A stretch of 64,000 bases of DNA from Escherichia phage slur07. How positions within the stretch are numbered: position 1 is the stretch's first letter; each line of letters opens with the position of its first letter. The position numbers were made by a program, and so were the translations under genes. The notes beneath the pieces are model-generated. The model did not search any database, was not told the origin of the DNA, and worked only from the letters and a program-made list of their open reading frames with translations. The stretch is taken from the sequence record NC_028780.1; one strand, given 5' to 3'. Positions 49,740 through 53,534 of this stretch are shown piece by piece.

Positions 49740-49789
49740 AGATGCTCCTTTTATTCTATTTATAAATATGATAAATAAAGGAGCTAAAT

Positions 49790-50840: not shown

Positions 50841-50880
50841 GAATCTAAGTCCATCCAATAACAATTGAATAGAGAACAAT

Positions 50881-51294
50881 ATGAAATTAGAAGATCTTCA
50901 AGAAGAATTGAAGAAAGATGTGTTTATAGATTCGACTAAATTACAGTATGAAGCAGCTAATAATGTGATGTTATATAGTAAATGGCTTAATAAGCATTCA
51001 AGTATTAAAAAGGAAATGCTTAGAATTGATGCACAGAAAAAAGTTGCTCTTAAAGCTAAATTAGACTACTACTCGGGACGAGGAGATGGTGATGAATTTA
51101 GTATGGATCGTTACGAGAAATCAGAAATGAAGACAGTTCTATCGGCTGATAAGGATGTTTTAAAGGTTGATACCTCGTTGCAGTATTGGGGGATTTTATT
51201 GGATTTCTGTAGCGGAGCTCTTGATGCTATTAAATCACGTGGATTTGCTATTAAGCATATTCAAGACATGCGAGCATTTGAGGCTGGAAAATAA
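50881..51294 (+). CDS. uvsY: UvsY recombination mediator
   Basis: 137 aa matching T4 UvsY. Confidence 0.93.
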   Translation: MKLEDLQEELKKDVFIDSTKLQYEAANNVMLYSKWLNKHSSIKKEMLRIDAQKKVALKAKLDYYSGRGDGDEFSMDRYEKSEMKTVLSADKDVLKVDTSLQYWGILLDFCSGALDAIKSRGFAIKHIQDMRAFEAGK

Positions 51295-51518
51295 TGAGAT
51301 ATAGCATTGATGATGCTTTTAATTATGAAGAAGAATTTGAAACTGAGATTCAATTCTTAATGAAAAAGTATAATCTTAAGCGTCAGGATATTCGTATCCT
51401 GGCCGACCACCCGTGTGGTGAAGATGTCCTTTATATTAAAGGAAAATTTGCTGGATATCTTGATGAATATTTTTATTCTAAAGATATGGGCATTGATATG
51501 CATATGAGAGTTGTATAA
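51294..51518 (+). CDS. hypothetical protein (uvsY.-1 position)
   Basis: 74-aa ORF overlapping uvsY stop. Confidence 0.5.
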   Translation: MRYSIDDAFNYEEEFETEIQFLMKKYNLKRQDIRILADHPCGEDVLYIKGKFAGYLDEYFYSKDMGIDMHMRVV

Positions 51519-51546
51519 ATAGATATATAATTCAGAGGAGACAATC

Positions 51547-51714
51547 ATGTCAGATAAGATTTGTGTTGTCTGTAAAACTCCAATCGATTCTGCATTGGTT
51601 GTTGAAACAGACAAAGGTCCTGTACATCCTGGGCCTTGCTATAATTACATTAAAGAACTACCAGTTTCAGAAAGTTCGGAAGAACAATTAAATGAAACAC
51701 AACTTTTGCTATAG
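51547..51714 (+). CDS. small Cys-containing protein (uvsY.-2 position)
   Basis: 55-aa ORF MSDKICVVCKTPIDS...PGPCYNY with CxxC plus distal Cys; SD GAGGAG upstream; under 60 aa so absent from ORF track. Confidence 0.45.
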   Translation: MSDKICVVCKTPIDSALVVETDKGPVHPGPCYNYIKELPVSESSEEQLNETQLLL

Positions 51715-51737
51715 TGTGACCTTTAGTCTATAGTTTT

Positions 51738-51766
51738 GGCCCTTCCTTTTTGGTTGGGCCTTTTTT
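51738..51766 (+). terminator. candidate terminator between convergent uvsY and uvsW operons
   Basis: GGCCC...GGGCC stem with long loop followed by TTTTTTAATTT; weak hairpin. Confidence 0.35.
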
Positions 51767-51769
51767 AAT

Positions 51770-52012
51770 TTAAAAGCTTTCTTCTACTTCATCGTCTGAA
51801 TCTTCTAATTCAGCTCTTTTTCCTGCCAAAGCATCTCTCACAGAGATGTCATCAGTATCTTTTAATTCAGTTTCTTTGACTCTTTTCTTATAATAAGCTT
51901 CAAGTTCTTCTAAACCTTCTAATGTTTGACAAGAGGCAATTTTACCCATAAATTCATCAATAGAAGCTTCATAAAGAAATTGTTTAAATTCTAGTAACAT
52001 CTTTTTCTCCAA
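51770..52012 (-). CDS. uvsW.1: UvsW.1
   Basis: 80-aa acidic ORF immediately downstream of uvsW. Confidence 0.6.
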   Translation of the reverse strand: MEKKMLLEFKQFLYEASIDEFMGKIASCQTLEGLEELEAYYKKRVKETELKDTDDISVRDALAGKRAELEDSDDEVEESF

Positions 52013-52025
52013 AGGGCCGAAGCCC

Positions 52026-53534
52026 TTATAAATTAACTGTTTTCATTACGTAATTAAATTTTTCATCTGCGTAGCGCTGAATACGATCAATGCCGTGTTT
52101 TAAAAGATAGTTCAAATGAACATATTTCTTTTTAGTATTAGCAGATTTTGGCTTAACACCACAATCATCTATGAGGTCCCAGACTATTGCTATTGTCTTA
52201 GAACCATGCTTACGTAATACACGACCGATTGTTTGTAATACAATGATTTTTGATTTAACACCGTGCGCTAAAACAACGTGATGCAGATTTTTAACTGAAA
52301 TACCAGTAGAAAATACACCATAACTAGCTACTATAATTATTCCTTTACCATTTTCAGCTAAGGTTTTCATTATATTGCGGGTTTCGGTATCAACTTCCCC
52401 TGATACGTAATAAACTTTATCGTATTCATTTTTAATTAAATCGAAAATAGCTTTACCATGTGATACATGTTTAAACATGACAAAAGCGTTTTCATCTTTT
52501 TGCGCAAGCTTAATAGCTAATTTAGCGATCCATTTATTTCTTTTACTAAGCCCAGTAATAATTTTTATTTCTTCTTGATAAGTTTTTCCCTTTAATTTAG
52601 TAGTGAACTCATCTGGATAGCGAAGAAAAATACTATTAATTTTTAGCTCAGTTACTTGTCCATCTTCCATTAATTTAGAAGTCGTTACTGGCTTAAATAT
52701 TTCACCAAACATTCCAACATACTGCATGATATTAGCTTTGCCATCACGTAATGAACCTGATAGACCAAATTTAAACATACAGTTATTTAATCCTGATATG
52801 ATAGATGAAATACTTTTTCCTGTAGCAAGATGGCATTCATCATTCATCATCATTCCAAACTGTGAGAACCATTCTTTTGGTTGTTTTACTACAGTTTGCC
52901 ATGTACCAACAACGACTGGTGCATCATTTTTATATTTATCATCTTTTGATGCTCCGCCACCAATTTTCTTTATCATTGCATGGCTGAATAAACGATAGTC
53001 AACGAAGTCATCAGCCATCTGAGTTGTCAGAGCAGTTGTTGGAACAATGATAAGAATTTTACCTTCATAATTTTCCAAATAATACCGAGCAAGCAAAGCT
53101 TGAATTAACGATTTACCAGCGGATGTTGGAAGATTAAGAATTCTACGACGATTAACTAATCCTTCGAACACTGCATCTTTTTGATACCAGTGTGGTTCAA
53201 TTCTTTTATTTCCTGAATAGATTTCTAATTTAGAAAGCCATTCATCAAAATCTTTTCTTGATAATTCTTCTTTTTCGTTAATTTGTGGGTCAATCCAGGC
53301 TTTATAGCCAAAGTTATCACAGAACTTTTTAATTTGCCCGACTAAGCCGAATGGAAGAAGACGATTATAATCTAAAAGACGGATTCGTCCATCCCAGTTG
53401 CCATATCTGAAGCGAGGGTTAAATCTATATCCATCGGCCTCAAACGAAAAGAAATCTCTTAATTCGTGGAACGTGCTCTCTTCACAATCGATGCGTACAT
53501 GACTGAAGTCGTGAAAATGTACTTTAATATCCAT
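52026..53534 (-). CDS. uvsW: UvsW helicase (SF2)
   Basis: 502 aa; Walker A SAGKS and DECH box; matches T4 UvsW. Confidence 0.93.
   Translation of the reverse strand: MDIKVHFHDFSHVRIDCEESTFHELRDFFSFEADGYRFNPRFRYGNWDGRIRLLDYNRLLPFGLVGQIKKFCDNFGYKAWIDPQINEKEELSRKDFDEWLSKLEIYSGNKRIEPHWYQKDAVFEGLVNRRRILNLPTSAGKSLIQALLARYYLENYEGKILIIVPTTALTTQMADDFVDYRLFSHAMIKKIGGGASKDDKYKNDAPVVVGTWQTVVKQPKEWFSQFGMMMNDECHLATGKSISSIISGLNNCMFKFGLSGSLRDGKANIMQYVGMFGEIFKPVTTSKLMEDGQVTELKINSIFLRYPDEFTTKLKGKTYQEEIKIITGLSKRNKWIAKLAIKLAQKDENAFVMFKHVSHGKAIFDLIKNEYDKVYYVSGEVDTETRNIMKTLAENGKGIIIVASYGVFSTGISVKNLHHVVLAHGVKSKIIVLQTIGRVLRKHGSKTIAIVWDLIDDCGVKPKSANTKKKYVHLNYLLKHGIDRIQRYADEKFNYVMKTVNL

Follow-up and report, generated by a model that had tools for sequence, protein, structure and literature searches.

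The closest described counterpart of the open reading frame (ORF) considered here is uvsY.-2 of phage T4 (T4p185; NP_049797; UniProt Q00778), which databases label as an uncharacterized 6.1 kDa protein of the uvsW-uvsY intergenic region; T4 annotations have carried it for decades, Pfam gives it a DUF entry of its own, and no functional account of either uvsY.-2 or DUF2685 was found in the literature. In a time-resolved transcriptome and proteome of T4 its RNA falls into the middle class and its protein into the late class (PMC9697503 supplement); since it is class-listed in the proteome, the protein was evidently detected by mass spectrometry (PMC9697503). A CRISPRi-ART screen classified uvsY.-2 as “Semi-Fit”, with three guides over the ribosome binding site and start codon scoring approximately 2.1–2.3, and guides directed against uvsY, uvsY.-1, and uvsW as “Not Fit” (PMC11879866). 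Upon knock-down with a single guide the efficiency of plating was nearly the same and plaque size was reduced, and this defect was complemented by expression of uvsY.-2 in trans (PMC11879866). For complementation, uvsY.-2 was fused in line with sfGFP (plasmid sfGFP_linker_T4_uvsY.-2; PMC11879866); as sfGFP is named first in the plasmid designation, the C-terminus of uvsY.-2 would be free in this fusion.

Proteins built along comparable lines have been described outside of the phages. YacG (PDB 4TMA, 1LV3) combines a zinc treble clef with an acidic tail which plugs into gyrase, an architecture that parallels the one proposed below for uvsY.-2; however, there is no detectable homology between the two, the tail motifs are different, and the Pfam YacG family does not match. 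When the uvsY.-2 family alignment was compared to E. coli YacG (query sequence verified against 4TMA) with hhalign, this single comparison yielded a probability of 2.9% (E 0.015), and homology to YacG was rejected. Compared to eL24/Rlp24, TRASH/FCS (MYM), the first finger of LIM domains, and Vps39, uvsY.-2 is a stand-alone, phage-specific protein of 55 residues with a conserved tail of its own; eL24 is basic and binds rRNA, whereas uvsY.-2 is acidic.

In the window (the whole stretch of 64,000 nucleotides from Escherichia phage slur07, NC_028780.1, that was analyzed) the ORF occupies positions 51547–51714 of the plus strand, exactly where the initial annotation had placed it. It begins with ATG at 51547, ends with a TAG stop codon at 51712–51714, and encodes 55 amino acids, MSDKICVVCKTPIDSALVVETDKGPVHPGPCYNYIKELPVSESSEEQLNETQLLL, which amount to 6062 Da with a pI of 4.44, nine acidic and four basic residues, and a net charge of about −5. 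The coding sequence is 100% identical to T4 uvsY.-2 in both DNA and protein. Pfam DUF2685 (PF10886) matches over its full length (profile positions 1–55 of 55) with 119 bits against a curated cut-off of 25 (E 9.3e-35), PHROG 1043 matches as well (E 3.9e-31), and the gene has the setting of that family, that is, it is a stand-alone gene for a protein of roughly 50–65 amino acids in the uvsY…uvsW.1/uvsW cluster of Straboviridae. The 55-codon ORF is the Tequatrovirus gene uvsY.-2, real, expressed, and already annotated; as a feature, it is nothing new. This bears on the earlier view that the ORF is missed by a 60-amino acid cut-off: the protein does fall below this size and its gene is absent from the annotation of two records, but in T4 it is annotated, as uvsY.-2/DUF2685. 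The two records, GiZh (KT184311) and Kha5h (KT184312), are otherwise well-annotated Tequatrovirus genomes in which the uvsY.-2 sequence is intact and only the coding sequence lacks an entry, because the ORF is so small.

With its T4 counterpart the gene shares sequence, neighbors, promoter region, and terminator, and there is no difference in the gene itself. The window nevertheless derives from a close Tequatrovirus relative and not from T4: genes 25 and 26 differ at approximately 3–4% of their positions, and there are two indels, one of 2 nt between the late-promoter motif and the Shine-Dalgarno sequence of uvsY.-2 and one of 10 nt upstream of uvsY. The former consists of two extra nucleotides (AT) at 51523–51524. 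The latter, near position 50854, is the lack of CCAATAACAA, one copy of a tandem duplication present in T4 (NC_000866); it falls into the intergenic region of gene 25 and uvsY, which in T4 carries the uvsY promoter and oriF.

An ORF of only 55 codons in an AT-rich genome, left without annotation in a few GenBank records, could in principle be a chance ORF within a non-coding spacer between uvsY.-1 and the terminator; this explanation can be considered refuted. Stop codons or frameshifts in close relatives, which the initial annotation had named as evidence against the ORF, were looked for and none were found; the frame is open in all 10 diverged relatives compared, and it is the only frame for which this holds. 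Among four close relatives the variable columns are distributed over first, second, and third codon positions as 18/8/33, and dN/dS (Nei-Gojobori) is 0.05–0.3 wherever dS is not saturated, well below 1; the comparison with phage AV114, for example, shows 14 synonymous and four non-synonymous differences (omega = 0.06). A tblastn search places uvsY.-2 in 1250 phage records, of which 1242 reach a coverage of 80% or higher; identities range from 100% to about 41%, and the hosts of these phages include Escherichia, Klebsiella, Acinetobacter, Aeromonas, and Vibrio. UvsY is found in 1464 records, the main contrast being the Synechococcus phages, which have UvsY and are absent among the organism groups listed for uvsY.-2. 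Conversely, a search of the uvsY.-2 region against Rfam matched no RNA family. Together with the strong Pfam match, the detection of the protein by mass spectrometry, and the complementation of the knock-down in trans, this establishes that uvsY.-2 is translated, selectively maintained, and makes a modest contribution to phage fitness. Two ORFs on the minus strand, at 51357–51614 (85 aa) and 51550–51627 (25 aa), were rejected as spurious; most relatives have stop codons in all minus frames over the length of the uvsY.-2 coding sequence.

The gene is preceded by the motif TATAAATA (51514–51521, plus strand), which is the consensus of T4 late promoters; 25 nt separate it from the uvsY.-2 start codon further downstream, and it overlaps the stop codon of uvsY.-1. 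The exact motif has only 15 copies on both strands of the window, compared to nine expected by chance. Its position upstream of uvsY.-2 is conserved across five genera, with exact copies at similar distance in Mosigvirus AV114, Moonvirus Moon, Muldoonvirus Muldoon, and Acinetobacter phage Maestro; in WG01 and KP185, AATAAATA is found in its place. From its sequence, TATAAATA at 51514 is a probable gp55-dependent late promoter of uvsY.-2, and the conserved motif and the “late” class of the protein together suggest that the gene has a promoter of its own, besides being reached by read-through from uvsY. Elsewhere in the window, at 49757–49768, two overlapping copies of TATAAATA on opposite strands are found in the divergent intergenic region of gene 51 and gene 26, and judged by sequence they look like back-to-back late promoters.

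The initial annotation had also noted a good Shine-Dalgarno sequence, and this observation is borne out: GAGGAG (51535–51540, plus strand) is located 6 nt before the ATG, an equivalent GGAG or GGAGG is present at the same spacing in nine relatives, and it is guides across this ribosome binding site and the start codon that cause the defect in the CRISPRi-ART screen. Downstream of uvsY.-2 lies the intrinsic terminator of the uvsY operon (51738–51766, plus strand), a GGCCC…GGGCC hairpin at 51738–51760 followed by six T residues (51761–51766). The 64-nt stretch at 51712–51775, which holds the hairpin, has a predicted folding energy of −16.1 kcal/mol (z = −2.5), and a GC-rich hairpin with a T-run is kept 3′ of uvsY.-2 in relatives, being annotated as terminator in GiZh and Muldoon. 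A simple consensus scan for terminators found nothing at the 3′ end of uvsY.-2, because the stem contains an internal loop.

On the plus strand, uvsY (50881–51294; Pfam UvsY E 4.5e-52, PHROG 1541, T4 annotation) is followed by uvsY.-1 (51294–51518; 74 codons, T4 annotation), which belongs to the same transcription unit; thus, uvsY.-2 is located 3′ of uvsY, as the initial annotation had stated, but not directly so. On the minus strand, and convergent with uvsY.-2, are uvsW.1 (51770–52012; Pfam UvsW-1 E 1.7e-30) and the gene for the UvsW helicase (52026–53534; from the ORF list). In the window, uvsW (502 aa) and uvsW.1 (80-aa ORF) are separate, as they are in most modern records; the T4 references AF158101 and NC_000866 (112677–114440) instead give a single uvsW coding sequence of 1764 nt accompanied by a note on sequence discrepancies. 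KP185, Moon, Muldoon, and Phi1 lack the intervening uvsY.-1, and in WG01 it is reduced to 32 amino acids, so that, as far as these genomes tell, uvsY.-1 is dispensable in evolution.

Across 15 loci, the span of which takes in Tequatrovirus as well as Vibrio, Aeromonas, and metagenomic lineages, uvsY.-2 stays in the cluster formed by uvsY and, convergent with it, uvsW.1 and uvsW. Its placement between gp25/uvsY on one side and uvsW.1/uvsW on the other is the same in Tequatrovirus, Mosigvirus, Dhakavirus, Jiaodavirus, Moonvirus, Muldoonvirus, Krischvirus, Biquartavirus, Schizotequatrovirus, and several metagenomic lineages; in all loci examined but one, that of Acinetobacter phage Maestro (Hadassahvirus), uvsW is the convergent neighbor, and uvsW.1 is recognizable in most. 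In Maestro, uvsY.-2 directly follows gene 25 and is separated from uvsW by several other genes; in this phage and in Aeromonas phage 31, uvsY is not adjacent to uvsY.-2. Since most genomes have the gene 3′ of genes 26 and 25, and since it shows late-protein kinetics and a late-promoter motif, one might ask whether it is a morphogenetic or assembly factor tied to baseplate genes 25, 26, and 51, for example a zinc-dependent chaperone or a minor virion component; tail and baseplate genes are indeed among the other “Semi-Fit” genes of the CRISPRi-ART screen (PMC11879866). Such a role is very improbable considering the rearranged loci. In two of them (L018 and L019) the order is a Dda-like helicase gene, a YqeY-like gene, uvsY.-2, uvsY, a 114-aa ORF, and convergent uvsW.1/uvsW, without baseplate genes nearby, and the stop codon of uvsY.-2 overlaps the start codon of uvsY by 4 nt; uvsY and uvsY.-2 overlap or abut in L014, L016, and L020 as well, and the two genes are coupled throughout L014–L016. 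The persistent linkage of uvsY.-2 is therefore to recombination genes and not to baseplate genes, and nothing points to a virion protein.

The YqeY-like gene (137–156 aa; PF09424, with matches from sub-threshold to threshold) deserves mention because it immediately precedes uvsY.-2 in four divergent lineages of T4-like phages, namely Aeromonas phage 31, Vibrio phage VS1, and two metagenomic contigs (L002:2004-2474; L003:1913-2326; L015:531-962; L018:3064-3504). The slot is kept where uvsY is on the other side of uvsY.-2 (L018) and where uvsY is absent from the locus (L002). The annotation of the Aeromonas version as “tRNA amidotransferase” is probably an over-call. The idea that uvsY.-1, which takes this slot in T4, is a remnant of the YqeY-like gene was rejected, the hhalign probability being 0.1%.

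The DUF2685 family is small. When the family profile was run exhaustively against 1.84 billion representative proteins (E ≤1e-3), it retrieved only 65 clusters, the representatives of which are 46–75 amino acids long in 58 cases and mostly stand-alone; the other seven are longer owing to N-terminal extensions, mis-called starts, or spurious repeat matches. Among the long ones, P0064 (1774 aa), P0069 (172 aa), and P0085 (445 aa) are repeat proteins which match short stretches of the profile repeatedly and are almost certainly spurious. A version of 123–126 amino acids, represented by P0030 (L014:487-867) and by BFVD A0A3Q9R9K3, occurs in some phages; in P0030 the DUF2685 finger is preceded by a fused N-terminal extension of 72 residues, and the stop codon of uvsY lies within the overlap of the two genes. 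PHROG 26998 is the sole match to this extension, which has no similarity to uvsY.-1. One close homolog (P0003) carries the NCBI label Enterococcus faecalis, probably owing to phage contamination of the assembly. Within the window, no paralog of the DUF2685 finger is encoded.

In an alignment of 59 diverse representatives (50%-identity level; 58 of them full-length), C6, C9, C31, and E42 are invariant, and K10, G24, H27, and G29 are conserved to at least 90%. The CxxC motif and the distal PGPC recorded in the initial annotation correspond to C6/C9 and to residues 28–31 (within H27-P-G-P-C31), and the conservation in related phages which that annotation proposed to examine is thus found for the cysteines as well as for the ORF. 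The pattern C-x2-C-x15-20-[H/C]-x3-C is present in 58 of the 59 sequences, the exception being a truncated sequence which looks corrupted; exactly three cysteines are present in 43. Position 27 is His in 56 of 58 members and Cys in the remaining two (P0080 and P0084), an exchange which, as far as an alignment can tell, substitutes one ligand for another in the way characteristic of metal sites. The four positions correspond to codons 51562–51564 (C6), 51571–51573 (C9), 51625–51627 (H27), and 51637–51639 (C31) of the plus strand. Conservation and the predicted fold strongly suggest that uvsY.-2 binds one zinc ion via these residues in a treble-clef module.

In the AlphaFold model, which was built with the diverse family alignment, the mean pLDDT is 79, with values of 84–91 for residues 1–38 and 56–67 for the tail. 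It contains β-pairs 4–5/12–13 and 19–21/24–26 and a helix at 30–37; C6 and C9 lie in a predicted zinc knuckle, H27 follows strand 24–26, and C31 is in the first turn of the helix, the ligand geometry being deduced from secondary structure and conservation. The predicted one-zinc module comprises residues 4–38 (51556–51660, plus strand). Because the second half-site is H-x3-C and the last ligand sits on the helix, the model argues for a treble clef rather than a two-knuckle ribbon: four conserved ligands would be supplied by a CxxC knuckle and by the end of a hairpin together with the N-terminus of a helix. The hallmark of a classical zinc ribbon, two CxxC knuckles from β-hairpins, is not found. 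Hence, the “small zinc-ribbon-like” protein of the initial annotation holds as far as a small metal-binding protein is concerned, which is well supported by ligand conservation and fold matches, but its fold is probably that of a treble clef (eL24/TRASH/LIM-half-like).

The structural neighbors of the model are all zinc mini-domains, among them eL24/Rlp24, LIM, C1, FYVE, RING, YacG, FCS, TRASH, and CsfB, with LIM, RING, and PHD domains returned by Foldseek; rubredoxin- and TFIIS-like ribbons are not among these neighbors, and the absolute match scores are low, which is no surprise for a module of approximately 35 residues. Matches in BFVD are members of the DUF2685 family only. Of the solved structures, only the C-terminal zinc finger of Vps39 (6ze9) is matched by the family profile (E 1.1e-3); zf-Vps39_C (PF10367) in turn matches P0030 alone, with 17 bits against a cut-off of 24.7, and neither this family nor LIM, TRASH/FCS, or eL24 gives a match above its threshold.

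Fingers resembling those of eL24, FCS, and TRASH can bind RNA, and by analogy uvsY.-2 could be a nucleic acid-binding zinc finger, acting for example on the R-loop of oriF(uvsY), on late mRNAs, or on recombination intermediates. This is quite improbable in view of the strong negative charge and low pI of the protein; of its four basic residues only one is conserved, and beyond the ligands the conserved surface consists of an acidic and hydrophobic tail, as is typical of protein docking. As uvsY.-2 is too acidic for a typical nucleic acid-binding protein, a protein-binding adaptor or regulator is most likely.

The tail (residues 39–55; 51661–51711, plus strand) has no predicted regular structure and is, despite the low confidence of the model in this part, the most conserved portion of the family apart from the ligands. 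The C-terminal third consists of [LIV]-x-E42-[SN] (E42 codon at 51670–51672), a short and variable acidic linker, and a terminal motif, hydrophobic-x-[DE]-[TVI]-[QE]-[LM]-[LI]-(hydrophobic)-COOH, which is present in nearly all 59 representatives. In the window this motif reads LNETQLLL (L48-x-E-T-Q-L-L-L55; 51688–51711); Q52 is variable among family members (E, H, S, T, V, G), many of which terminate in …QLL. No other ORF of the window carries it, and variants with N-terminal extensions such as P0030 exist in nature. We infer that the conserved tail is a motif for docking to a partner.

Tails of this kind have precedents. Bacterial SSB and clamp-binding tails are acidic and end with a few hydrophobic residues at the C-terminus. 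Similarly, the tails of gp33, which binds the gp45 clamp and ends with TLDFLL (also in the window), and of gp32 (…DLDDLLNDL) resemble that of uvsY.-2 in combining an acidic stretch and a hydrophobic extreme C-terminus in a flexible segment. The resemblance does not extend to the motifs themselves. The consensus for gp45 binding is [ST]LDFL[FLY] and that for β-clamp binding is QL[SD]LF or QLxLxL; the uvsY.-2 tail fits neither and lacks an aromatic residue, so that a sliding clamp-binding peptide of either type was rejected. Mimicry of the gp32 tail was discarded for the same kind of reason, the motif not fitting, and the Dda-binding peptide of gp32, which comprises residues 248–270 (gp32-Dda paper), is not an analog of the uvsY.-2 tail.

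A docking-type tail on a small, acidic, and non-toxic protein would also suit an inhibitor directed against the host, that is, an acidic finger neutralizing a host enzyme or an immunity protein, with the location in the recombination cluster being incidental. The authors of the CRISPRi-ART study list uvsY.-2 among the genes possibly involved in “host-encoded defense system inhibition” (PMC11879866), and the structural neighbors YacG and CsfB would offer models, YacG acting on gyrase and CsfB/Gin on a sigma factor. Still, we regard this as unlikely: functions in host takeover are mostly early, whereas the protein accumulates late, apparently from a late promoter; the gene occupies a fixed place in the core genome, which sets it apart from typical accessory anti-defense genes; and as phages of Escherichia, Klebsiella, Acinetobacter, Aeromonas, and Vibrio share the tail motif, the target would have to be very conserved. 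Searches with PADLOC and NCBIfam HMMs gave no matches for uvsY.-2, and the failure to link it to YacG by profile comparison points in the same direction.

We therefore lean towards a two-part protein, zinc finger plus docking tail, which would bind other proteins as an adaptor or regulator and act in late recombination or replication. Transcription reaches the gene by read-through from the uvsY promoters and, most probably, starts at a late promoter of its own as well (TATAAATA, 51514); the transcripts stop at the hairpin and T6 (51738–51766), and translation starts from the strong Shine-Dalgarno sequence. Approximately residues 4–38 would form the single-zinc treble-clef finger and act as a rigid handle, and the flexible acidic tail (residues 39–55), with E42 and L-x-E-T-Q-L-L-L-COOH, would fit into a groove on a partner. 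This partner would be conserved across T4-like phages and, although its identity is a matter of speculation, would most plausibly be a phage protein for recombination or replication that belongs to the uvsY/uvsW module and works late in infection; the effect would be an improved late recombination-dependent DNA metabolism and, with it, a larger burst and larger plaques. The more specific proposal that uvsY.-2 is an accessory subunit of the T4 recombination/replication-restart machinery, a zinc-finger adaptor the tail of which docks late in infection to UvsY, UvsW/UvsW.1, or another core protein of DNA metabolism and which thereby tunes recombination-dependent replication, is doubtful at this point; if true, one of the most thoroughly studied models for recombination mediators would gain a new component. 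More generally, should the partner be a recombination or replication protein, a textbook model system would be refined. uvsY.-2 belongs to a small group of T4 genes without assigned function which most T4-like phages of Proteobacteria share, which are made as protein, and which are measurably helpful in infection, and the combination of treble clef and docking peptide makes its function testable, the more so as a published knock-down and complementation assay exists.

A second docking-like tail may be encoded next door. UvsW.1 (51770–52012, minus strand) is likewise small and acidic, and its C-terminus, …AELEDSDDEVEESF, looks like an acidic tail of the SSB type with an aromatic last residue; the genes of two proteins with docking tail-like C-termini, uvsY.-2 and UvsW.1, thus face each other across one terminator.
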